Positions 7,876-19,673 are shown, numbered from the stretch's first letter. The stretch is 32,000 nt of DNA from Erysipelotrichaceae bacterium MTC7 (GCA_001695645.1 LVZN01000012.1:150001-182000), one strand, 5' to 3'. Notes: generated by a model from the letters alone, not told the origin. Program-made: numbers and translations.

Positions 7876-10266
7876 ATGTTAATAAGTAGAAAATGGCTAA
7901 GCCAATATATGGATATCAGTGGATACACCATTGAACAATTGGCGGATAAAATAACTGCTGCAGGATTAGAAGTCGAAGGAATTGAAGTCCTAGCAAGTGG
8001 AACGAATCTAGTAATTGGTGAAGTTTTAACATGCAAACCACACCCAGATAGTGATCATCTATCAATCACCGAAGTTGATGTGAAAGATGAAGTGCTACAA
8101 ATTGTCTGTGGAGCACCTAATGTCCGTGCTGGTTTAAAAGTTATTGTGGCTAAAGTTGGAGCGAAACTACCAGAACTAGAAATTAAAAAGGGAAGCATTC
8201 GCGGTGTTGAAAGTAATGGTATGCTTTGTAGCTTACTTGAACTTGGTGTAGATGCTAAAAGTTTAACTGACGAACAAAAAGCAGGGATTGAAGAACTAGA
8301 TGCTGATGCAATCGTAGGTGAAAGTGATGTTCTTGCCTATTTAGGGCTAGATGATGAAGTCTTAGATATTGGACTTACCCCTAATCGTAACGACTGTTTA
8401 GCTGCCTTTGCAATGGCAAAAGAAACTGGTGCAATCTTAGATACTCCAGTGATGTTACCTTCGTATGAAGGAGCAGCAAACGGTGGAGATGCTTCAAAAC
8501 TTGTTGTGAAAAGTGAAACTGAAAAATGTCCATTGTATTCAGGGAAAATTATCAATCAGCTCACAATCAAAGAAAGTCCAAAGTGGATGCAAGAATTATT
8601 GCACTCAAGTGGAATCAAATCAATCAACAACGTCGTCGATATTTCGAACTTGGTGATGTTAGAAACAGGACAACCATTACACTTCTTTGATTTGTCGAAA
8701 TTAGAGAAACAAGAAATCGTTGTAAAAGATGGTTTACATGAAACCTATACTGCACTAGATGGAAATACATACCAACTAGAACCAGAAGATATTGTGATTA
8801 CCATCAATGACAAACCAGTTGCAATTGGTGGAGTCATGGGTGGAGATGATTCAAAAATCGATGATGATACAACCGCAATCTTAATTGAAACTGCTAGTTT
8901 TAATCACGTAAGTATTCGTAATACAGCACGTCGTTTAAACTTAAATACAGATGCAAGTATTCGTTACCAAAAAGGGATTGAACCACTTGCTCCATATAAA
9001 GCAATGGATCGAGCTGTGCAATTACTTATGGAATACGCTGATGCTACAGGCATTGAAGAAACAAAGTATTCAGCAGATATCGCATATGAAGATACTGCGT
9101 TTGATGTTAACTTACAAGCTATCAATGCACTTTTAGGATTGGAAATTTCTGAGCAAAAGGCAATTGATGTATTGACTCGTTTGGACTTCAATCCAACAAA
9201 ACGTAAAGGTAACATTCATGTTGTGATCCCAAGCTATCGTACAGATATTAAAATTGAAGCAGATATTGCTGAAGAACTTGTTCGTCTGATTGGATTTGAT
9301 GATTTACCATCAACGCTTCCTTTAATGCCTGAAACAGAAGGGAAGTTAAATAAACGCCAACAACTTCGTCGTTTATTACGCAATACGCTTTGTGCGCAAG
9401 GACTTCAAGAAGTCGTAACGTATACTTTGGTTAGTGACGAACTAAACAATGATGCCATTATGCCACAAGCATCTAATGTTGCAGTTGCTTCACCGATGAG
9501 CGAGGATCGAAAAATTATCCGTGGTAGTATTTTACCAAGTATGCTAAGTTGCATTGCGTACAACAAAGCACGTAGTGTTAAACATGTGGCATTCTTTGAA
9601 ATATCAGAGGTGTACTCTAACGAAGACAGTGAAGAGCGACTGGCACTTGCCATCCAAGGTGATTTACAACAAAATCGTCATTTACATTATGAAATCAAAC
9701 CCGATTTCTATACAATGAAAGGTTTAGTTGAAGCATTGTTAGAAAAACTTGGATACAATGCAAGCCGAGTCATGATTAAAGAAAATGATGTAGATACAAC
9801 ACATTTCCACCCATACCAAAGTGCAGCAGTGTACATTGGTCGTGACTTATTAGGTATTATTGGAGTTATTCATCCAAATATGGCTAAAGCATACGGTGTG
9901 GATACAACGGTGATGGCAGAACTTAAACTTGAAGTCATTTTAAAAAATAAAACAAGTAAAGTGAAGTTTGAAGCGATTTCAAAATATCCACATGTAGTTC
10001 GTGACTTAGCGTTTGTAGTTGATGTTAAAACACCTGCTGGAGAAATTATCAAAGCAATTAAAACGACAGGTAAAAATGTCATTCAAGATATTGAAGTCTT
10101 TGATGACTACCGTGGAGAACATGTAGAAGAAGGTAAGAAATCATTAGCGATTTCGATTACATACCAAGCAAAAGATCATACGTTAACGGATGAAGAAATC
10201 ACAAACTTGTACAATGGTGCGAAGGATATTGTGAATAAAAAGTTCGATGCAGATTTAAGAGGATAA
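7876..10266 (+). CDS. pheT: phenylalanine--tRNA ligase beta subunit
   Basis: 796 aa. N-terminal tRNA-binding OB domain (GEVLTCKPHPDSDHLSITEVDV), B3/B4 and B5 regions, and a C-terminal FDX-ACB-like domain. The start is 8 nt after the pheS stop with a GGAGGG RBS. Confidence 0.95.
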   Translation: MLISRKWLSQYMDISGYTIEQLADKITAAGLEVEGIEVLASGTNLVIGEVLTCKPHPDSDHLSITEVDVKDEVLQIVCGAPNVRAGLKVIVAKVGAKLPELEIKKGSIRGVESNGMLCSLLELGVDAKSLTDEQKAGIEELDADAIVGESDVLAYLGLDDEVLDIGLTPNRNDCLAAFAMAKETGAILDTPVMLPSYEGAANGGDASKLVVKSETEKCPLYSGKIINQLTIKESPKWMQELLHSSGIKSINNVVDISNLVMLETGQPLHFFDLSKLEKQEIVVKDGLHETYTALDGNTYQLEPEDIVITINDKPVAIGGVMGGDDSKIDDDTTAILIETASFNHVSIRNTARRLNLNTDASIRYQKGIEPLAPYKAMDRAVQLLMEYADATGIEETKYSADIAYEDTAFDVNLQAINALLGLEISEQKAIDVLTRLDFNPTKRKGNIHVVIPSYRTDIKIEADIAEELVRLIGFDDLPSTLPLMPETEGKLNKRQQLRRLLRNTLCAQGLQEVVTYTLVSDELNNDAIMPQASNVAVASPMSEDRKIIRGSILPSMLSCIAYNKARSVKHVAFFEISEVYSNEDSEERLALAIQGDLQQNRHLHYEIKPDFYTMKGLVEALLEKLGYNASRVMIKENDVDTTHFHPYQSAAVYIGRDLLGIIGVIHPNMAKAYGVDTTVMAELKLEVILKNKTSKVKFEAISKYPHVVRDLAFVVDVKTPAGEIIKAIKTTGKNVIQDIEVFDDYRGEHVEEGKKSLAISITYQAKDHTLTDEEITNLYNGAKDIVNKKFDADLRG

Positions 10267-10270
10267 ACTT

Positions 10271-10298
10271 AAGGTTGTAGTTAGACTGCAACCTTTTT
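10271..10298 (+). terminator. rho-independent terminator of pheST
   Basis: AAGGTTG / CAACCTT stem followed by a T-run. Confidence 0.6.
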
Positions 10299-10333
10299 AT
10301 AATGGAGTTAGGATCATATAGGAGGAGGCACTT

Positions 10334-10618
10334 ATGAAATTTGCATATTTAATTTTGGGACCGTTTCAAAGTGATGTGGATCACGCATCCATCCACAATG
10401 AAACAGCACAAATCATTGGGGTAAGAACCATAGAAGAAGCTTGCACAGTTGCAAAACGTCTACAAGACGAAGGAATTAGTTGTATTGAATTGTGTGGTGC
10501 ATTTACCAAAACAGGAGCTAGAGAAGTTATTCATGCCACAAATGGTGAAATACCTGTTGGTTATGTTGTACATGACGAAGATCAAAACGAAATCTATAAT
10601 AAAGTCTTTTCAAGATAA
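10334..10618 (+). CDS. small conserved hypothetical protein (94 aa)
   Basis: Strong GGAGGAGG RBS. The ELCGAF motif looks like a small alpha/beta domain. No function recognised. Confidence 0.5.
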   Translation: MKFAYLILGPFQSDVDHASIHNETAQIIGVRTIEEACTVAKRLQDEGISCIELCGAFTKTGAREVIHATNGEIPVGYVVHDEDQNEIYNKVFSR

Positions 10619-10689
10619 GTGATTTGATTTCTTTCTAGTATCCCGTAGCGTAGAATGCTATAATTATAAAAATTATTGGGGGATACAAT

Positions 10690-11868
10690 ATGAAATACGC
10701 AAAACGAATGAGTCAAGTAAAAGCATCAGAGATACGCGAAATACTTAAAATAACAGAAAACCCAGAAGTAATTTCATTTGCAGGTGGACTTCCTGCACCT
10801 GAACTTTTTCCAATTGAGGAAATTAAGAAAATCAATGAAATTGTTTTAGCAGAAGATGGACAAAAAGCTTTACAGTATACTACAACAGAAGGGTATCACC
10901 CTTTACGTATATGGATTGCAAAGCGAATGAATCACCGACTACAAACACAGTTTGATGCTGATCAAGTTCTTATTACACATGGTTCACAACAAGCACTTGA
11001 TCTAAGTGGTAAAGTATTTTTAGATGAAGGTGATTATGTGGTTTGCGAAAGTCCAACCTATTTAGCTGCAATTAGCGCATTTAAAATGTATGGAGCTAAA
11101 TTTATTGAGATACCTTGTGATGATACAGGCATGGATATGGATGCTTTAGAAGCACAATTAGAGCAAAATCAAAGGATTAAATGCATGTACGTGATTCCAG
11201 ATTTTCAAAATCCAACTGGAAGAACTTGGAGTTTAGCAAAACGTAAACGAATTGCTGAACTATCTAATATGTATGATGTTCCAATTATTGAAGATAACCC
11301 ATATGGAGAATTGCGTTTTGAAGGTGAACATTTACCAGCAATTGCCTCGTTTGATAAAAAGGGAACATGCATTGTGACAGGAACGTTTTCAAAGACGTAC
11401 TGCCCAGGGTATCGCATTGGTTGGGTAGCAGCAAACAGTGATTTGATTAAGCAGTATGTCCTTGTAAAACAAGGTTCTGATTTGCAGTGTAATACGATGT
11501 CTCAATTAGCGATTGCCAAATTTGTCGAGTTATACGACCTTGATGCACACATTCAAACGATTACGAAAGTATATAAAAAACGTCGTGATTTAGCTGTGCA
11601 AACAATGCATCAAGCATTTCCAAAGAATGTGCATTTTACAGAACCTGAAGGCGGATTGTTTGCGTGGGTAGAATTACCTGAGCAAATACATGCAAGGGAA
11701 GTGTTAGAAGTCGCTTTGAAAGAAAACATTGCGTTTGTTCCTGGTGGGTCATTCTTTCCAAATGGTGGACATGAAAATACATTTCGAATCAATTTTTCTA
11801 ATATGAGTGAAGAGCGAATTGTTGAGGGACTTACGAAACTTGGATCTATTTTGTATCGATTTATTTAA
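10690..11868 (+). CDS. PLP-dependent aminotransferase, fold type I (2-aminoadipate/aromatic aminotransferase-like)
   Basis: N-terminus SEIREILKITENPEVISFAGGLPAPELFP is typical of the AadAT/MocR-type aminotransferase domain. PLP-lysine region is TFSKTYCPGYRIGW. GGGGG RBS. Confidence 0.8.
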   Translation: MKYAKRMSQVKASEIREILKITENPEVISFAGGLPAPELFPIEEIKKINEIVLAEDGQKALQYTTTEGYHPLRIWIAKRMNHRLQTQFDADQVLITHGSQQALDLSGKVFLDEGDYVVCESPTYLAAISAFKMYGAKFIEIPCDDTGMDMDALEAQLEQNQRIKCMYVIPDFQNPTGRTWSLAKRKRIAELSNMYDVPIIEDNPYGELRFEGEHLPAIASFDKKGTCIVTGTFSKTYCPGYRIGWVAANSDLIKQYVLVKQGSDLQCNTMSQLAIAKFVELYDLDAHIQTITKVYKKRRDLAVQTMHQAFPKNVHFTEPEGGLFAWVELPEQIHAREVLEVALKENIAFVPGGSFFPNGGHENTFRINFSNMSEERIVEGLTKLGSILYRFI

Positions 11869-11954: not shown

Positions 11955-11989
11955 AAAAAAACATCGAGTTTAAATCTCGGTGTTTTTTT
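11955..11989. terminator. bidirectional rho-independent terminator shared by convergent genes
   Basis: A7 - CATCGAG / CTCGGTG hairpin - T7. The hairpin includes the stop and last codons of the minus-strand phosphatase gene. Confidence 0.65.
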
Positions 11990-12437
11990 CTTCTTTCAGT
12001 TTTTGTAACAATGCTTTACAACCAATATTGACATCTGTGTAGGTTGTTTCATAGTCACCAGTGTACCATGGGTCTGCAATACTACGTTTCAATGGAGTGA
12101 TATCCAATAGCTTAAAAACACGATTATCTTGTAGGTTTAGCATACGTTTCGTGTTTTTCACATTTGCATCATCCATACAGACAAAATAGTCGTAAACTTG
12201 TACATCAGAAGCCATTAGTCGTGTTGCTTGATGTCTAGCAAAGGGGATTTCTTTGGCTTTTAAGATGCGTTTGGTACCAGGATGCATATCATTACCAATT
12301 TCTTCACTACTGGTTGCTCTTGAAACAATGGTATAGCCGTCCAATCCAGCTTTTTTTACCATTTCTTTAAATACGTATTCTGCCATTGGTGAACGACAAA
12401 TATTTCCATGGCACACAAAACAAATGTTCTTCTTCAT
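11970..12437 (-). CDS. low-molecular-weight protein-tyrosine phosphatase
   Basis: P-loop CHGNICRSPMAE (CX5R-S) and a C-terminal DPWY(TGD) acid loop. The second ATG (12437) is preferred because the first ATG is part of the GAAGGAG RBS. Confidence 0.85.
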   Translation of the reverse strand: MKKNICFVCHGNICRSPMAEYVFKEMVKKAGLDGYTIVSRATSSEEIGNDMHPGTKRILKAKEIPFARHQATRLMASDVQVYDYFVCMDDANVKNTKRMLNLQDNRVFKLLDITPLKRSIADPWYTGDYETTYTDVNIGCKALLQKLKEEKNTEI

Positions 12438-12459
12438 AACAAACTCCTTCATCCATTAC

Positions 12460-12543: not shown

Positions 12544-12567
12544 TTTGTCACTCAAGCGTGTGACAAA
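12544..12567 (+). promoter_or_regulatory. perfect 8-bp inverted repeat, candidate MtlR operator
   Basis: TTTGTCAC-tcaagcgt-GTGACAAA. The right half TGTGACAA and left half TTGTCAC resemble the TTGNCAC/GTGNCAA half-sites I recall for Bacillus MtlR. It ends 17 nt upstream of the putative -35. Confidence 0.5.
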
Positions 12568-12583
12568 GATGATTTTCGTTTTA

Positions 12584-12612
12584 TTGCTAGTTGGCTAAGC
12601 CTCTTTTACAAT
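12584..12612 (+). promoter_or_regulatory. candidate promoter of the PTS operon
   Basis: TTGCTA (12584-12589), a 17-nt spacer, then TACAAT (12607-12612), about 45 nt upstream of the mtlA ATG. Confidence 0.45.
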
Positions 12613-12655
12613 GAAGGTGTCAAAGGAAGTCTTAGACAGAAAAGAGGAGATTTGT

Positions 12656-14044
12656 ATGAAAGAAGGAATTCAAAAGTTTGGTCGCTTTCTAAGTGGAATG
12701 GTGATGCCAAACATTGCCGCATTTATCGCTTGGGGAATCATTACTGCTTTATTCATTGAAACCGGTTGGTTACCAAATGCAAAATTTGCTGGTTTGGTAG
12801 GTCCGATGTTGACGTACTTGTTGCCAATATTGATTGGATATACAGGTGGACATATGATCTACAAACAACGTGGTGGAGTGGTCGCTGCTATTGCATCATT
12901 AGGGGTTATCGGTGGAGGTCTAAACCTGCTAGGTGAAGGTCAAAACGTGACCATGTTCTTAGGGGTTATGATCATTGCTCCAATTGCGGGATACCTAACT
13001 AAGAAAATGGATGAAATGTTAGATGGACATGTTAAAGGTGGATTTGAGATGTTGGTTAACAACTTCTCAGCTGGTATTCTTGGATTCATTTTAGCACTAA
13101 TCGGAATGGTTGTGATTGGTCCAGTAAGTTTAGCCATCAATGATTTTTTAGGAGCTGCGGTTGATGTATTGGTTGAAAATAATATGTTGCCACTTACATC
13201 AATTTTTGTTGAACCTGCAAAAGTACTGTTCTTAAACAATGCGATTAACCATGGTATTTTCACACCAATGGGAGCAGAGCAAGTTTTAGAAACAGGAAAA
13301 TCAATCTTCTATTTAATTGAAGCGAATCCTGGTCCAGGTTTAGGATTGTTACTTGCATATACGGTGTTTGGAAAAGGTATGGCAAAAGCAAGTGCACCTG
13401 GTGCAGCGATTATTCACTTCTTTGGTGGGATTCATGAAATTTACTTCCCATACGTAATGATGAACCCATTAACAATCATTGCTATGATTGCCGGGGGAGC
13501 AAGTGGTGTTTTCATCAATGTGTTATTCAATAGTGGATTAACAGGTCCAGCCAGCCCAGGAAGTATTATTGCAATTATGGGAATGGCAGAAAAGGGAAGT
13601 TTCTTAGGTGTTGCATTAAGTGTTGTGATTAGTTGTATCGTAACCTTTGTTGTTGGTGCTTTTATCTTAAAATTAACAAATGGAAAAGATGTAGACTTAG
13701 AAGATGCACAAGCACAAGTTGACGAACGTAAAGCTGAGGCAAAAGGAATCCAACAAGCTTCAACAACAATTACGAAAGTTGTCTTTGCATGTGATGCCGG
13801 AATGGGGTCAAGTGCAATGGGAGCTACTACACTCACAAAGAAACTAAAAGATGCAGGCATAGATTTGAAAGTAGAACACTATGCGATTGAAGAAATTCCT
13901 AAGGATGCACAAATCATTGTAACGCACCAAAGTTTAGCAGATCGTGTACGTTCGACTGTACCAACTGCAACTGTAATGGAAATTACAAACTTTATGGGTG
14001 GAACTGAATACGATCGCATCGTTGAAGAAATTGCAAAACGCTAG
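12656..14044 (+). CDS. mtlA: PTS mannitol-family transporter, EIICB component
   Basis: N-terminus KFGRFLSGMVMPNIAAFIAWGIITALF is the MtlA signature. It is a multi-TM EIIC with a C-terminal EIIB domain carrying the phospho-Cys motif FACDAGMGSSAMG. ATG 12656 has a GAGGAG RBS; the ORF-track ATG at 12611 lies in the -10. Confidence 0.9.
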   Translation: MKEGIQKFGRFLSGMVMPNIAAFIAWGIITALFIETGWLPNAKFAGLVGPMLTYLLPILIGYTGGHMIYKQRGGVVAAIASLGVIGGGLNLLGEGQNVTMFLGVMIIAPIAGYLTKKMDEMLDGHVKGGFEMLVNNFSAGILGFILALIGMVVIGPVSLAINDFLGAAVDVLVENNMLPLTSIFVEPAKVLFLNNAINHGIFTPMGAEQVLETGKSIFYLIEANPGPGLGLLLAYTVFGKGMAKASAPGAAIIHFFGGIHEIYFPYVMMNPLTIIAMIAGGASGVFINVLFNSGLTGPASPGSIIAIMGMAEKGSFLGVALSVVISCIVTFVVGAFILKLTNGKDVDLEDAQAQVDERKAEAKGIQQASTTITKVVFACDAGMGSSAMGATTLTKKLKDAGIDLKVEHYAIEEIPKDAQIIVTHQSLADRVRSTVPTATVMEITNFMGGTEYDRIVEEIAKR

Positions 14045-14070
14045 TCAAAAATAAAGAAAGGGGAAAGTTT

Positions 14071-16161
14071 ATGATTGTATCACCAAGGTTAAGTAAAATA
14101 TTACAAATCTGCTTAGAACAAAAAGCGGATGACTTTGTGAGCATGGATGAACTTTCTACCTTACTACAAATTAGTAAGCGAACACTGTTTCGTGAAATAC
14201 AAGATATTGATTTTGTCCTTGAACCCTTTCAATTACAACTTGTTTCTAAAACAGGAATGGGTTTGCAGGTTCATGGTGACAAAATACATAAAGATGCCTT
14301 ATACCAAGAATTACAAAGCCAAAAGCATCGATATTTAATTAAAGAAGATCGTAGAAAACTATTAATCCTTGAAATATTGCGAACGGATGAAGTCCAAAAA
14401 CTATATTACTATGCAGATTTATTTCAAGTTTCACAAGCAACGATACGCAACGATTTGGACTGTGTGGAACCATGGTTTGATAACCATCAATTACACATCA
14501 ATCGTACACCAGGATTGGGTATTGAATTGCTTGGAGATGAAGTGAGTTATCGTCAGGCGATGACCGCGATTTTAAATGAATCACTAGCAAGTCGACAAGA
14601 TACACATATTGATATGTACAACTCACAAAGCTTGTTAGATGAAGTCTTCACAAGTGATGAAGGAATCTTTAATTTGTTGAATCAGGACATCTTAAAAGAG
14701 GTATTAGAAATCTTTGATCATCATGGTAAAGAATTAGGATTGTTGCAATATGCACAAAGTTCTTACATTGGTCTACTTATTCATTTAGTCATTGCTATTG
14801 ATCGAATTCAAAAGCATGAAGAGATTAAGGAAAATGAGTATGTTGTAGAAATGATGATTGAGGATATATCCTACCAACAAGCAACAAAATTGAAAACGAT
14901 AATTGATGAGAGATTTGCGATTGTCATGCCAGAAACCGAGATTGCATTTATTGCTATGCATATGAAAGCTGCAAAACTAACCACGAGACAGGCTAGCGAA
15001 CCCAGTGAATTACTTGAACTGTATAGTGAAGATGAAATATTAGCATTCATCGATCAAATGATTGCAACATTACCAGAGCCGTATGATGTGTTACTAAAAA
15101 ATGATGATGAGTTAATGATGGGAATGATTGCACATTTGCGTCCTACTTTAATTCGATTGAAACATAACATGCCAATCTACAATCCTTTATTGGAAGAAGT
15201 AAAAGCACAATATGGAACAATGTTTGACTACGCCAAACAAGCAAGTCAAGTGTTAGAGCATACTTATAATTATCGTTTACCAGAAGGTGAAATTGCCTAC
15301 ATCGCCATGCATCTAGGTGCAGCAATCGAGCGTAGCAAACGAACAAAACCAATGAATAAACACATTTGTGTAGGAATTGTTTGTGCTTCTGGAATTGGTG
15401 TATCGGCATTATTGCAAGCAAAACTGTCAAAAATTGTCGATAGTCATGTGCATTTAGAAACATTGAGTTTGGATCAAGTGCACCAACAAAACCATATGTG
15501 TGATCTATTGGTGAGCACGATCGCTTTACCAAATGAAGTGCAAGCAATCACCATCAACCCTTTGTTGCCATTGGATGATGAAAATCGGGTAAAAGATGCG
15601 ATTAGTAAAACAAGAGTCACGACTCGTTATAAAAGTCAGATGCGTAAAAATCAAAGTTCTGTTGATCAACTTGCTAATACCGTACTTGATGTCTTAGAAA
15701 ACTTCTCGATTGAAACCTTGGACTATCGCTCCAATAAAGAGGATGTGATGAAAGCATGTGCCAGTATGGTAAGTCAACGTGCCGATCACCAAGAAGAACT
15801 AGTTCTTGCATTAAAAAAACGAGAAGCGTTAAACACAACTGTATTTTCTGATTTGGGTCTTGCCTTGTTTCATGGGCAAGGAGCGTATGTCGAACAAGGT
15901 GTTGTAAAGTTGATACGCCCCAATCACGAAGCATTTATTTGCGAAGAATTATCAAATATCTATTTTGTGTTTGCGATGTTTCTACCAGAAAATAGCAATC
16001 GTGAACAATTGCAAATGCTTAGCATGTTATCACGCAAATTGATCGAAGACGATAATTTCTATCAAGCATGTATGAGTGAACCGCATGCAATCGTTTATCA
16101 GAAGCTTGAAATGCTGTTAAAAGAATACGTTTTCCAAGTGATTGCAGAAGGCAGGAAGTAA
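14071..16161 (+). CDS. mtlR: MtlR-type PRD-containing transcriptional activator
   Basis: 696 aa. N-terminal HTH (LSTLLQISKRTLFREIQDI), two PRD regions, an EIIB(Gat)-like CASGIGVSA motif and a C-terminal EIIA-like domain. Size and position match Bacillus MtlR. Confidence 0.85.
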   Translation: MIVSPRLSKILQICLEQKADDFVSMDELSTLLQISKRTLFREIQDIDFVLEPFQLQLVSKTGMGLQVHGDKIHKDALYQELQSQKHRYLIKEDRRKLLILEILRTDEVQKLYYYADLFQVSQATIRNDLDCVEPWFDNHQLHINRTPGLGIELLGDEVSYRQAMTAILNESLASRQDTHIDMYNSQSLLDEVFTSDEGIFNLLNQDILKEVLEIFDHHGKELGLLQYAQSSYIGLLIHLVIAIDRIQKHEEIKENEYVVEMMIEDISYQQATKLKTIIDERFAIVMPETEIAFIAMHMKAAKLTTRQASEPSELLELYSEDEILAFIDQMIATLPEPYDVLLKNDDELMMGMIAHLRPTLIRLKHNMPIYNPLLEEVKAQYGTMFDYAKQASQVLEHTYNYRLPEGEIAYIAMHLGAAIERSKRTKPMNKHICVGIVCASGIGVSALLQAKLSKIVDSHVHLETLSLDQVHQQNHMCDLLVSTIALPNEVQAITINPLLPLDDENRVKDAISKTRVTTRYKSQMRKNQSSVDQLANTVLDVLENFSIETLDYRSNKEDVMKACASMVSQRADHQEELVLALKKREALNTTVFSDLGLALFHGQGAYVEQGVVKLIRPNHEAFICEELSNIYFVFAMFLPENSNREQLQMLSMLSRKLIEDDNFYQACMSEPHAIVYQKLEMLLKEYVFQVIAEGRK

Positions 16162-16162
16162 C

Positions 16163-16876
16163 ATGAAACAATTGAAAGTATATGTCGTTTGTGATGCAGG
16201 TATGGGTTCAAGTGCCTTAGGTGCATCACTCATTCAAAAGAAATTAAAAGAACAAGAAGTAGCTATCAACATAAATAATTGTAGTGTTGCAGAAGTACCA
16301 AAAGATGCAGATATTTTAATTACACATCGAATGTTCTATAACCAACTTCAAGAAGCATACAAAGATGCGAAAGTGATAACTTTTATATCATTTACAGAAA
16401 AGAATACCTATGAAAGGATCGTTAAAGAGATTATGGAAGAAAATAAAAAGAATACGATACTCAATAAAGATTGTATCGAAGTAAATTGCAAAAAAGTAGA
16501 ACGTAGACAAGCCATTGATGATATTGGACAAACCTTGTTAGAAGCTGGGTTTATTGAAGAACCATACATTGATGGAATGCACAAACGTGATGAATCGTTA
16601 ACGACCTTCATTGGTAATGATATTGCCATTCCACACGGAGAGTATGAAGTTAAACCCTTTGTGAAACAAACAGGACTTGCTGTTAAAGTATACCCAGAAG
16701 CAATTGATTGGAATGGGAATCCGGTGCGTGTTGTCATTGGTATTGCTGCAAAGGATAGTGACCATCTTGATATTTTAAGTAACATTGCCGTAAAGTTAGG
16801 AGAAATGGATGTTGTGGAAGAACTTGTGAATAGTCATGATGTTGACTTAATCCACCGCACCCTGACAAGAGAATGA
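16163..16876 (+). CDS. PTS mannitol-family EIIB-EIIA fusion protein
   Basis: The N-terminal ~95 aa are a second EIIB (VVCDAGMGSSALGASLIQKKLKE), homologous to the MtlA C-terminus. The C-terminal ~140 aa are EIIA(Mtl) with the phospho-His motif NDIAIPHGE. ATG 16163 has an AGGAAG RBS, 1 nt after the mtlR stop. Confidence 0.85.
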   Translation: MKQLKVYVVCDAGMGSSALGASLIQKKLKEQEVAININNCSVAEVPKDADILITHRMFYNQLQEAYKDAKVITFISFTEKNTYERIVKEIMEENKKNTILNKDCIEVNCKKVERRQAIDDIGQTLLEAGFIEEPYIDGMHKRDESLTTFIGNDIAIPHGEYEVKPFVKQTGLAVKVYPEAIDWNGNPVRVVIGIAAKDSDHLDILSNIAVKLGEMDVVEELVNSHDVDLIHRTLTRE

Positions 16877-17808
16877 TTTATACACTTACATGCAATCCAG
16901 CCATTGATAAAACAGCGACCTTACAAGAATTACAAGTCGGTGCTCTCAATCGGTTAGAAAATGTCGTTATTTCGGCAGCGGGTAAAGGGATCAATGTCAG
17001 TAAAACCTTACTCACGATGGGACAAGATAGTATCGTGTTGGCCTTTCTTGCAGGTAATACAGGTACGTTTATTCAAGAGACATTAGCAACAATCAATTTA
17101 GCAACAAAGGCTATTTGGGTTGAAGGAACCACACGAACCAATTTAAAGATCATGGATCATGCATCAAACTTAACGGAATTAAATGAACGTGGACCTTTGG
17201 TGGATGAAAATAAACAAAACGAAATGATGGAAATGCTTGCTTCGATTTTACAACCAGGAGATATACTTGTACTTGCTGGAAGTTTATCAACTGGAATGGA
17301 CACAACTTATTATGCAACTCTCGTTGCGTATTTTGCAAAACGTGAGGTTAAAGTAATTGTCGATGCCGATGATGCAGCTTTCAAACAAGCTGTAGATCAA
17401 GTTCCATATTTGGTAAAACCAAATGCATTTGAACTGTGTCAATATATGCATCAACCTGAAAGTGAAAATCCGGTTGTACTTGCCAAAATGGCAAAGCAAC
17501 TCTTACAAAAGGGAATTGGCATGGTTGTTGTATCGATGGGGAAAGCTGGAGCTTTATTCCTACGTGATCAACAAGTGCTTTATGCCAAAGGTTTACATGT
17601 TGATGTAAAATCAACGGTTGGAGCAGGAGATGCCATGGTTGCAGCACTTACTTATGCAATTGAAAAGAAGTGGGATCTTGAAAAATTAGCAATTTATGCA
17701 ACAGCAGTAAGTGCTGGAGCATGTACAACTGCAGGTACAGAGCCGGCAAGTAAAAACGTTATTGATACATTAATTAAACAAGTCGTAGTAGAGAAAATAG
17801 AGGTATAA
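16873..17808 (+). CDS. PfkB-family sugar-phosphate kinase, 1-phosphofructokinase type
   Basis: N-terminus MIYTLTCNPAIDKT and C-terminal GAGDAMVAALTYA are typical of FruK/LacC-type kinases. It has an ATGA overlap with the preceding gene. Confidence 0.8.
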   Translation: MIYTLTCNPAIDKTATLQELQVGALNRLENVVISAAGKGINVSKTLLTMGQDSIVLAFLAGNTGTFIQETLATINLATKAIWVEGTTRTNLKIMDHASNLTELNERGPLVDENKQNEMMEMLASILQPGDILVLAGSLSTGMDTTYYATLVAYFAKREVKVIVDADDAAFKQAVDQVPYLVKPNAFELCQYMHQPESENPVVLAKMAKQLLQKGIGMVVVSMGKAGALFLRDQQVLYAKGLHVDVKSTVGAGDAMVAALTYAIEKKWDLEKLAIYATAVSAGACTTAGTEPASKNVIDTLIKQVVVEKIEV

Positions 17809-17809
17809 C

Positions 17810-19078
17810 ATGAAAACCAGAGCAGTTAGATTATATGGAGTAGATGATCTTCGTTTAGAAGAATTTGAGCTTCCAGAAATAAAAGATGATGAAATTCTCG
17901 TTAGAGTCGTAAGTGACAGTATTTGTATGTCGACATACAAAACTGTAAAACAAGGTAAAAACCATAAACGAGTACCGGATGATGTAGCCACCAATCCAAT
18001 CATTATTGGACATGAATTTGCTGGTGACATTGTACAGGTTGGGAAAAAATGGCAAGATCAGTTCAAAGCAGGACAACGATTTGCACAACAACCAGCGTTA
18101 AACTACAAAGGAAGTTTAGCTTCACCTGGATATTCGTATCCATATTTTGGTGGAGATTGTACGTATTGCATCATTCCACCAGAAGTGATGGAGTTGGGTT
18201 GTTTGATGGTGTACGAAGGTGATAGTTACTATAGTGCAAGCCTTGGTGAACCGATGTCATGTATCATTGGTGGATATCGCGCCAACTATCACACCAACAA
18301 GCAAAACTACATTCATGACATGGGAATCAAAGAAGGTGGAAATCTTCTTATCATGGGTGGAACAGGACCGATGGGTTTAGGTGCTATTGATTATGCAGCA
18401 GCAGGTGATAAGAAACCAAAACGCGTCGTTGTTACTGACTTGAGTGCGCAAAGAATTGCACGTGCACAACGCGTTTTATCAGAAGCAAGCATGAAAGATA
18501 AAGGGATTGAACTTATTTACTTTAATCCAAATGATTATGAAGACGATACGCAAGCTTTACTTGATATTACCGAAGGAAAAGGGTATGACGACATCTTTGT
18601 TTATGTACCTGTAGAAGCACTTGCCCAACAAGCAAGTAAACTGTTGGCATTTGATGGATGTATGAATATCTTTGCGGGTCCAACAGACAAAAACTTCTCA
18701 GCGATGGTTAACTTATATGATGTTCATTATACAAGTACTCACATCATGGGAACAACTGGTGGGACAAATGATGATTTACTTGAAGCACTACGCTTGTCAG
18801 AACAAGGAACCATCAATCCTTCACTTATGGTGACGCATGTTGGTGGACTGGATAGTGTGGTTGAAACAACCATCAACCTTCCAGAAATACCGGGTGGAAA
18901 GAAGTTAATTTATACACAAATTGATATGCCACTTACGGCAATTGATGACTTTGCCACACTAGCAAAAGAGGATCCTTTGTTTGCCAAACTACATACATCA
19001 TGTGAGAAACACAATGGCTTATGGAATGTCGAAGCGGAACGAATTTTACTTGATCATTTTAAAGAAAACCAACTGTAA
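17810..19078 (+). CDS. medium-chain (zinc-type) dehydrogenase, sorbose-1-phosphate reductase (SorE)-like
   Basis: 422 aa. Catalytic-Zn ligand context VVSDSICMS ... IIIGHEFAG and Rossmann motif LIMGGTGPMGLGAIDYA. The N-terminal third (RLYG..DLRLEEFELPE..DEILVRVVSDS...VPDDVATNPIIIGHEF) matches my recollection of Klebsiella SorE. It lacks the MtlD motif GAGNIGRGF. Confidence 0.7.
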   Translation: MKTRAVRLYGVDDLRLEEFELPEIKDDEILVRVVSDSICMSTYKTVKQGKNHKRVPDDVATNPIIIGHEFAGDIVQVGKKWQDQFKAGQRFAQQPALNYKGSLASPGYSYPYFGGDCTYCIIPPEVMELGCLMVYEGDSYYSASLGEPMSCIIGGYRANYHTNKQNYIHDMGIKEGGNLLIMGGTGPMGLGAIDYAAAGDKKPKRVVVTDLSAQRIARAQRVLSEASMKDKGIELIYFNPNDYEDDTQALLDITEGKGYDDIFVYVPVEALAQQASKLLAFDGCMNIFAGPTDKNFSAMVNLYDVHYTSTHIMGTTGGTNDDLLEALRLSEQGTINPSLMVTHVGGLDSVVETTINLPEIPGGKKLIYTQIDMPLTAIDDFATLAKEDPLFAKLHTSCEKHNGLWNVEAERILLDHFKENQL

Positions 19079-19095
19079 ATTACAGTTGGTTTTTT
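19068..19095 (+). terminator. strong rho-independent terminator closing the PTS operon
   Basis: Perfect 11-bp stem AACCAACTGTA / TACAGTTGGTT followed by T5. It overlaps the stop codon. Confidence 0.8.
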
Positions 19096-19205: not shown

Positions 19206-19673
19206 ATGATCCAATGGGAAGTAATTAGAGAATCGGAGAAATTAAAAGCCGAAATCACAGCTGTAAGTCAACAACTCTTACAACCGTTCTATGAAAAATT
19301 TAGAACAAATGCATTGCAATTGTCTATTCTTAATGAGGCAGAAGCAAATCCAAATTTGACGTTGAATACGTTAGCGTCAGTCTTGAATCGTGCAGCTACA
19401 AACCTATCAGTTAAGGTTACTGCGATGGTAAAAGATGACTTATTGAAGAAAGTGGTTGCAAATCATGATCGACGAATTATTTACATTCAACCAACTGCAA
19501 AAGGGTTAGATTTAATTAAGAAATCACGTGAGTTTATTATTAAACGTTATGAACTTGTTGATGATGATGATACGGATATTCGTAATTTGGTGAGTTCTGC
19601 AACGGTATATTTAGATAAATTGTTAGAGGCAAAACGGAAACCTGTCACACAAGAATTGTTTGATAGTTTATAA
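19206..19673 (+). CDS. MarR family transcriptional regulator
   Basis: 155 aa with a winged-HTH region LTLNTLASVLNRAATNLSVKVTAMVKDDLLKKVVANHDRRIIYIQPTAKG. AGGAGG RBS. Confidence 0.75.
   Translation: MIQWEVIRESEKLKAEITAVSQQLLQPFYEKFRTNALQLSILNEAEANPNLTLNTLASVLNRAATNLSVKVTAMVKDDLLKKVVANHDRRIIYIQPTAKGLDLIKKSREFIIKRYELVDDDDTDIRNLVSSATVYLDKLLEAKRKPVTQELFDSL

Follow-up and report, generated by a model that had tools for sequence, protein, structure and literature searches.

A mannitol-type phosphotransferase operon with a YggP/SorE-family dehydrogenase and a 1-phosphofructokinase: a predicted route through fructose-1-phosphate

Introduction

Mannitol operons of Firmicutes such as Bacillus, Geobacillus, Clostridium acetobutylicum, and Streptococcus mutans have the gene order mtlA-mtlR-mtlF-mtlD, and the canonical MtlD makes fructose-6-phosphate (F6P). 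A 32,000-nucleotide stretch of DNA from Erysipelotrichaceae bacterium MTC7 (GCA_001695645.1, LVZN01000012.1:150001-182000; the whole stretch is referred to below as the window) contains, at positions 12,544 to 19,095 of the plus strand, an operon of this type in which the mtlD slot is occupied by a gene for an unrelated dehydrogenase, preceded by a gene for a PfkB-family kinase. The question that this locus raises is how a polyol taken up by a mannitol-type phosphotransferase system (PTS) could reach glycolysis without MtlD.

The answer that we consider probable, with moderate confidence, is that this is a self-contained, MtlR-activated operon in which mannitol-1-phosphate is oxidized at C2 to fructose-1-phosphate (F1P) and then converted to fructose-1,6-bisphosphate (FBP), with mannitol or a very close hexitol as substrate. 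In the first step, the EIICB transporter and a soluble EIIB-EIIA protein would import the polyol and phosphorylate it to mannitol-1-phosphate. The dehydrogenase, a member of the YggP/SorE family, would then oxidize C2, the carbon beside the phosphate, with NAD+ to yield F1P. A translationally coupled 1-phosphofructokinase would convert F1P to FBP, which would enter glycolysis.

Gene content of the operon

Five open reading frames (ORFs) follow one another on the plus strand (12611/12656-14044, 14071-16161, 16163-16876, 16873-17808, and 17810-19078). The junctions between them are TAG-26 nt-ATG, TAA-C-ATG, an ATGA overlap (-4), and TAA-C-ATG. An earlier note on this DNA had described five tightly packed genes on one strand with spacings of 26, 1, -4, and 1 nt, and direct reading of the sequence agreed with it. 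The order that it had given, EIICB(Mtl), MtlR, EIIB-EIIA, PfkB kinase, and a 422-amino-acid (aa) dehydrogenase of the medium-chain dehydrogenase/reductase (MDR) type, was recovered from domain and hidden Markov model (HMM) matches.

The first gene encodes an mtlA-type EIICB (12656-14044). The listed ORF begins at 12611, but the ATG at that position falls within the -10 box of the predicted promoter, whereas the ATG at 12656 is preceded by a ribosome-binding site (AGAGGAG); 12656 is the likely start. The resulting protein has 462 aa, compared to 461 aa for the orthologue from Breznakia pachnodae. It scored above curated cut-offs for mannitol transporters (NF011663, 626.1 bits versus 589; TIGR00851, 488 bits versus 468.4) and has the EIIB(Mtl) motif CDAGMGSS at residue 379. 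Its identity was 53.5% to Escherichia coli MtlA and 49.9% to CmtA; it is as close to MtlA as MtlA is to CmtA. From these matches, the EIICB is predicted to transport and phosphorylate D-mannitol.

The second gene (14071-16161) encodes an MtlR-type PRD transcriptional activator of 696 aa with Pfam matches to HTH_11, Mga, two PRD domains, and EIIA_2. Its EIIB-like domain received no Pfam call but contains a CASGIG cysteine motif at residue 438, read as EIIB(Gat)-like, and the overall arrangement (HTH/Mga, two PRD domains, EIIB(Gat)-like motif, and EIIA-like domain) is that of MtlR. One nucleotide past the mtlR stop codon begins the gene for a soluble EIIB(Mtl)-EIIA(Mtl) fusion of 237 aa (16163-16876; Pfam PTS_IIB and PTS_EIIA_2), in which CDAGMGSS at residue 10 and IPHG at residue 156 are both intact. 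By analogy with E. coli MtlA, these are the putative PTS active-site cysteine and histidine motifs.

The fusion adds a second, N-terminal EIIB(Mtl) domain to the system, though the EIICB already carries one. Among the loci surveyed below, such fusions (237 to 251 aa) occurred in Erysipelotrichales only (the window, L001, and L022), and the EIIA protein elsewhere had 140 to 190 aa. In Bacillus, EIIB(Mtl) controls MtlR, and by analogy the extra EIIB domain could be regulatory.

Assignment of the dehydrogenase to the YggP/SorE family

The last gene (17810-19078) encodes a zinc MDR dehydrogenase of 422 aa (Pfam ADH_N and ADH_zinc_N), which we propose to be a mannitol-1-phosphate 2-dehydrogenase that would form F1P. 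Its relatives by tblastn were YggP and the SorE L-sorbose-1-phosphate reductases of Citrobacter, Serratia, and Klebsiella (48 to 50% identity); over 417 aa, it shared 53.7% of its residues with E. coli YggP and 48.4% with Klebsiella pneumoniae SorE. These alignments run end to end, including a C-terminal extension of roughly 60 residues. Motifs invariant in the family were HK[R/K] (residues 52 to 54), GYS (107 to 109), HY..TH (306 to 311), and GGKK (362 to 365), with conserved basic residues at H52-K53-R54 and K364-K365. Residues C39, H68, E69, and E147 were also invariant and, by analogy with sorbitol dehydrogenase, are putative catalytic zinc ligands; the protein also has the nucleotide-binding motif GGTGPMG and D210. 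By these comparisons, the protein is a full-length YggP/SorE family member, and the claim of the earlier note that the mtlD slot holds an unrelated SorE-like zinc dehydrogenase was upheld.

Curated HMMs gave only partial, N-terminal matches to the dehydrogenase, and none for the YggP/SorE family reached threshold. Identity as GatD was rejected (NF007642, 26 bits versus a cut-off of 550, residues 12 to 92 only), as was identity as MtlD, since none of the five proteins matched the mannitol dehydrogenase family. An AlphaFold2 model (predicted local distance difference test score, 86) had an ordinary MDR fold. Searches of the PDB by sequence and by fold returned no YggP/SorE family member; the nearest matches were generic polyol, threonine, and butanediol dehydrogenases with identities of ≤21%.

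SorE reduces L-sorbose-1-phosphate at the C2 carbonyl adjoining the phosphate (PMC12817954, PMC3832376). Because this nearest enzyme of known function acts beside the phosphate, the dehydrogenase of the window is predicted to carry out oxidoreduction at the same carbon, and its product would be a ketose-1-phosphate, most probably F1P. A side activity of SorE on F1P was reportedly described in 1984 by Sprenger and Lengeler.

The kinase is of the 1-phosphofructokinase type

The PfkB-family protein encoded between the EIIB-EIIA fusion and the dehydrogenase (16873-17808; 311 aa), whose gene shares the ATGA overlap with the gene upstream, scored 300.7 bits against the 1-phosphofructokinase equivalog TIGR03828 (cut-off, 292) and contains the GAGD motif. 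Its scores were far below the cut-offs of the sister models for LacC (156 versus 409.55), tagatose-6-phosphate kinase (170 versus 469), and Pfk-2 (128.9 versus 353). The 1-phosphofructokinase type assigned in the earlier note thus stands, with TIGR03828 passed and LacC and Pfk-2 failed, and the enzyme is predicted to act on F1P in preference to F6P and tagatose-6-phosphate. Five of six kinases tested from other operons with the dehydrogenase also passed the 1-phosphofructokinase cut-off.

The gene association is widespread

A protein search with the dehydrogenase returned at least 8,000 matches; the best 120 of these at least 8,000 were 68 to 94% identical, and the best among the matches listed was from an unclassified Breznakia (Erysipelotrichaceae; 94%). 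When one genome from each GTDB species was scanned, at least 599 relatives were confirmed. In order to survey gene neighborhoods, ORFs were called in the best 80 of these at least 599 species-representative loci and labeled by BLAST against reference proteins.

An Mtl-type EIIC was present in the same-strand run with the dehydrogenase in 65 of the 80 loci, and most of the remaining loci were on truncated contigs. A PfkB kinase accompanied the dehydrogenase in 61 loci and was adjacent to it in 53, and an MtlR-type regulator was found in 56. HPr-like genes occurred in about 42, often followed by a gene of approximately 540 to 570 aa; in the one example that was read (L013), this gene looks like Enzyme I (EI). 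A true MtlD (47% identical to that of E. coli) was detected in 1 of the 80.

With A, R, F, and K standing for the mtlA-, mtlR-, and mtlF-type genes and the kinase, typical orders were A-R-F-K-MDR(-HPr-EI), A-R-F-MDR, and DeoR-K-EIICBA-MDR. In B. pachnodae, the five genes of the window operon recur in unchanged order, upstream of the same lysA-dapFABH block. The hosts included Lachnospiraceae, Oscillospiraceae, Clostridium, Megasphaera, Erysipelotrichales, Treponema, and metagenome-assembled genomes (MAGs) assigned to Desulfovibrionaceae and Planctomycetota. Conservation of the gene order in related genomes, which had been put forward as a check, therefore extends to those genomes and far beyond. 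Judged from this survey, the design is not unique to Breznakia and is very common in gut Firmicutes.

The one surveyed locus with a true mtlD is in an Oscillibacter MAG (L037, 14242-16982), where the gene lies about 4.6 kb downstream of a DeoR-K-EIICBA-MDR operon and directly after a gene of 445 aa that is, by sequence, a putative pgi; both types of dehydrogenase coexist there.

Evidence for fructose-1-phosphate and for mannitol

The layout of the operon, the families of its proteins, and the recurrence of the gene association are shown by the sequences; the substrate, the position of oxidation, and hence the F1P intermediate are inferred from protein relationships and gene context. In addition to the chemistry of SorE, three features of the operons point to F1P. 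First, a 1-phosphofructokinase carried in the operon would be useless if F6P were formed. Second, DeoR proteins of the DeoR-K-EIICBA(Mtl)-MDR variants shared 41 to 43% identity with their counterpart in a DeoR-K-FruA unit, and a Miniphocaeibacter MDR operon has a kinase with 89% identity to the one encoded in an adjacent fruK-fruA unit; this regulator likeness and this fruK duplicate tie the operons to F1P metabolism. Third, the related cluster of E. coli includes a fructose-1,6-bisphosphatase (FBPase), for which, by inference, there is a need only where FBP is the entry point of carbon.

Mannitol is suggested as the substrate by the curated EIIC assignment, the MtlR-type regulator, and the EIICB tree. 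In a rough neighbor-joining tree, E. coli MtlA nested among the EIICBs linked to the MDR dehydrogenase, and an Enterococcus EIICB linked to MtlD grouped with CmtA. The type of dehydrogenase therefore does not track the EIICB clade, as would be expected if one dehydrogenase had displaced another while the substrate stayed the same. Stereochemistry is consistent with this assignment: in Fischer projections that we derived, the face used by SorE in converting L-sorbose-1-phosphate to D-glucitol-6-phosphate would map D-fructose-1-phosphate to D-mannitol-1-phosphate and not to glucitol-1-phosphate.

A number of observations weigh against the proposed route. SorE, the only family member of defined function, works reductively in vivo (PMC12817954). 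The margin of the window kinase over the 1-phosphofructokinase cut-off was just 9 bits, and the kinase diverges quickly: the window and B. pachnodae kinases (the latter at L001, 9061-9990) were 44% identical, compared to 79% for the dehydrogenases, and across the surveyed operons the median identity of the kinases was 40%, compared to 60 to 70% for the dehydrogenase. No kinase was present in the run in 19 of the 80 loci. Both E. coli and Photobacterium have mtlD as well as yggP, so that the two are not mutually exclusive. To judge from its other gene contexts, the YggP/SorE family probably handles more than one substrate. These contexts include six loci with no PTS nearby, in which the dehydrogenase (60 to 61% identical) is followed by a class II aldolase-like/short-chain dehydrogenase/reductase (SDR) fusion of 637 to 653 aa; a nagB-like gene in Miniphocaeibacter operons that passed the glucosamine-6-phosphate deaminase equivalog (255 bits versus 237); and a second EIICB in three loci (L013, L019, and L031) that forms a deep branch, 31 to 38% identical to other Mtl-type EIICBs.

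Several of these loci have further features. Five of the six aldolase-SDR loci are L078, L079, L080, L082, and L088, with the dehydrogenase at about 10001-11257; L084, a truncated A-R-F-K-MDR locus, lies outside this group. We take the fusion to resemble rhamnulose-1-phosphate aldolase/dehydrogenase fusions. A secreted protein of roughly 1,320 aa was often encoded upstream, and the gene content of this branch suggests a different substrate. The Miniphocaeibacter operons (L006, 3678-13592, and L007) have the order DeoR-fruK-nagB-like-EIICB-EIIA-MDR, with a gene for a class II FBP aldolase after it; in L006 only, a truncated-DeoR/fruK/fruA unit is inserted, and it is this unit that supplies the fruK with 89% identity to the operon's own. 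Tandem EIICB genes ahead of mtlR were found in Lachnospiraceae/Blautia loci L010, L011, L013, L015, L019, and L031. The deeply branching second EIICB may differ in substrate specificity and supply the same dehydrogenase.

Rates of evolution within the operon are very uneven when the two Breznakia species are compared: identity was 83% for EIICB and 79% for the dehydrogenase, 57% for the EIIB-EIIA fusion, 48% for MtlR, and 44% for the kinase. The window kinase may have been replaced or may be under relaxed or divergent selection.

Alternative explanations

The alternative that survives best, which we regard as unlikely, keeps the architecture and the chemistry and changes the polyol. The substrate would be D-glucitol phosphorylated at C1, which would also give F1P with the opposite stereochemistry at C2, or D-talitol/altritol, which would give tagatose-1-phosphate; in the latter case, the kinase would serve as a ketose-1-phosphate kinase, and an aldolase encoded elsewhere would finish the pathway. 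NCBIfam places the EIICB at the "subfamily" level only, E. coli CmtAB is called cryptic with no shown substrate, and the kinase is marginally above its cut-off. The deeply divergent second EIICB of some Lachnospiraceae loci and the class II ketose-bisphosphate aldolases that adjoin some loci would likewise suit another polyol. However, the one aldolase that was checked was an FBP aldolase (TIGR01859, 397 bits versus 343) and scored well below the cut-off for tagatose-bisphosphate aldolase (243 versus 444), and no aldolase is encoded in the window. The 53.5% identity of the EIICB to a genuine MtlA and the MtlR-type regulator favor mannitol, and the stereochemistry that we derived from SorE fits mannitol-1-phosphate rather than glucitol-1-phosphate.

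It is much less probable that the dehydrogenase is an analogue of MtlD or GatD that oxidizes the carbon distal to the phosphate to yield F6P, with the PfkB protein as an extra 6-phosphofructokinase. Such a 5-oxidation is carried out on galactitol-1-phosphate by the zinc MDR enzyme GatD, PfkB-family enzymes include Pfk-2, and some 1-phosphofructokinases are weakly active on F6P; for the Haloarcula 1-phosphofructokinase, the catalytic efficiency with F6P was 65-fold lower (PMC11519228). Both the GatD-like and the Pfk-2-like readings were rejected on the curated HMM scores given above, the GatD match being confined to the N-terminal domain, and the full-length identity of 48 to 54% is to the SorE/YggP family, which acts beside the phosphate. 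F1P is indicated by the FruR-like regulator and the duplicated fruK, and an F6P product would leave the E. coli operon with no need for its FBPase gene.

Least probable of all is that the dehydrogenase works as SorE does in vivo, reducing a ketose-1-phosphate (F1P from a fructose PTS, or sorbose-1-phosphate) to a hexitol phosphate, either to provide a redox sink or to feed a hexitol-6-phosphate dehydrogenase encoded elsewhere, a role that the fruK-fruA units adjoining some loci would suit, but the transporter is Mtl-type and not Fru- or Man/Sor-type, the regulator is MtlR-type, no sorbitol-6-phosphate dehydrogenase (SorD-like SDR) is encoded in the operon or the window, and the reductase would have to share its substrate with the kinase that consumes F1P.

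Comparison with known systems

The oxidation of mannitol-1-phosphate to F1P that we favor would be embedded in an operon that otherwise resembles mtlARFD. Both have the order EIICB, PRD activator MtlR, and EIIA, with the dehydrogenase gene distal and an activator site (a candidate in the window) upstream of the promoter. In the window, however, a YggP/SorE zinc MDR is in the MtlD slot, a 1-phosphofructokinase is inserted, the EIIA has an extra EIIB, and the predicted entry into glycolysis is FBP via F1P instead of F6P.

The dehydrogenase shares its family, common motifs, and predicted chemistry beside the phosphate with SorE (48.4% identity) of the sorCDFBAME operon of K. pneumoniae and E. coli. 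Unlike the window, that operon has a mannose-family PTS, the regulator SorC, and an SDR-type sorbitol-6-phosphate dehydrogenase; its route is reductive and ends at F6P without a 1-phosphofructokinase. In the fruR-fruK-fruA operon, as in the window, a 1-phosphofructokinase is cotranscribed with a PTS of the Fru/Mtl superfamily, and some variants of the window design have a FruR-like DeoR or the 89%-identical fruK copy. The window differs from the fru operon in its Mtl-type rather than FruA-type transporter and in the oxidoreductase step before F1P. The gatYZABCD operon also has a zinc MDR that oxidizes a PTS-derived hexitol phosphate, followed by phosphorylation to a ketose bisphosphate, but GatD oxidizes the carbon distal to the phosphate and the PTS is of the Gat family. 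The design thus works like a hybrid of mtlARFD (transport and regulation), SorE (redox step), and the fru operon (F1P to FBP).

The closest parallel in E. coli K-12 is the cluster cmtB-cmtA-yggP-yggF-fumE(yggD)-yggC (L008, 3073976-3079330). Like the window, it has an Mtl-type PTS beside a full-length YggP and no mtlD within the cluster; unlike the window, it lacks a pfkB kinase and a PRD-type MtlR. Features of its own are a class II FBPase (yggF), an MtlR-like small protein (yggD/fumE), and a P-loop NTPase (yggC), and YggC could be the kinase of the gammaproteobacterial version. The cmt cluster is unexpressed or uncharacterized ("cryptic"), and the canonical mtlADR is elsewhere in the E. coli genome. 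Photobacterium (L093) has cmtB-cmtA-yggP-yggD-yggC and a separate mtlD.

Novelty and implications

The earlier note knew of no characterization of this operon design. Full-text searches outside subscription journals likewise found no description of a pathway with an Mtl-type PTS, a YggP/SorE dehydrogenase, and FruK, and a single passing mention of YggP (PMC5217608). Two papers considered, on the evolution of D-tagatose use (PMC10101011) and on Haloarcula mannitol metabolism via free fructose and ketohexokinase (PMC11519228), were not relevant to the design of the window. Each part is familiar on its own, and transporter and dehydrogenase are paired in the same way in E. coli; the pathway itself is not known to have been formally described, and from the genomes surveyed it appears to be the prevalent arrangement in many gut anaerobes.

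On balance, we lean slightly toward a broader proposal as well. The YggP-type enzymes would be mannitol-1-phosphate 2-dehydrogenases that form F1P, and together with FruK they would constitute an undescribed mannitol pathway entering at FBP. This would be the common mannitol route, instead of MtlD, in gut Clostridia, Erysipelotrichia, and some Spirochaetes, and would provide a function for the "cryptic" cmtAB, for yggP, and perhaps for yggF. We know of no EC number for an F1P-forming mannitol-1-phosphate 2-dehydrogenase.

If this proposal is true, central carbohydrate metabolism gains this reaction and, with it, a new way in for a major plant and fungal polyol. Where mannitol use is predicted in genomes or metagenomes by the presence of mtlD, many gut Firmicutes would be overlooked, given that the dehydrogenase was found in at least 599 species-representative genomes and that its protein search gave at least 8,000 matches. 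A function open to testing would be assigned to E. coli yggP and the cryptic cmt PTS. Carbon that enters at FBP would, like that from fructose, skip the F6P pool and the control exerted at PfkA, with effects on regulation through FBP and F1P and on the requirement for FBPase. The gap that the proposal would fill, in carbohydrate metabolism and in how E. coli y genes are annotated, is widely distributed and open to experiment.

Control elements and surroundings of the operon

The note's description of a single operator/promoter region at one end and a single strong terminator at the other was matched by a palindrome, -35 and -10 boxes, and a hairpin. The palindrome, TTGTCAC-N7-TGTGACAA (12545-12566, or 12545-12568 with the trailing AG), was read directly and found in an inverted-repeat scan, and it lies directly 5' of the -35 box. 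It is followed by a predicted sigma-70-like promoter on the plus strand (12584-12612; pattern scan) with -35 TTGCTA, a 17-nt spacer, and -10 TACAAT.

When the upstream regions of the window and B. pachnodae were aligned, AATTTTGTCACT...TGACAAAG was the sole long conserved block, with the surrounding DNA diverged; besides this block, the promoter elements alone were conserved, with the position of the promoter partly kept. This is the appearance expected of an operator for the operon's own regulator, and the palindrome is a candidate MtlR operator. It presumably resembles the Bacillus MtlR site. Upstream of the surveyed operons, the palindrome was found in just 4 of 67 loci. Because MtlR was just 24 to 48% identical across the surveyed loci, the operator is probably lineage specific, and the informative comparison for its conservation is that of the two Breznakia species only.

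The intrinsic terminator (19063-19095, plus strand), identified by RNA folding and direct reading, overlaps the last stop codon and consists of a perfect 15-bp hairpin and, after it, a T-run (-17.7 kcal/mol; z = -5.48; 0 of 200 shuffled sequences folded as well). A consensus terminator scanner missed it because of its short loop.

Outside the operon, the window has housekeeping genes, including those for topoisomerase, pheST, an aminotransferase, dap genes, and RNase J. A tblastn search of the whole window detected no MtlD (three MtlD queries), FruA, FBP aldolase, FBPase, or HPr. Upstream, a 14-bp hairpin with flanking A-runs and T-runs (11955-11989) lies between convergent genes for the aminotransferase (10690-11868, plus strand) and a low-molecular-weight phosphotyrosine phosphatase (11970-12452, minus strand); it resembles a bidirectional terminator and would insulate the gene that neighbors the operon on its upstream side. 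Directly past the terminator of the operon is an ORF of 155 aa (19206-19673) with no Pfam match at E ≤ 1e-5. A gene for an 881-aa helicase-like protein is in its place in B. pachnodae, so that synteny is broken at the operon's downstream edge.

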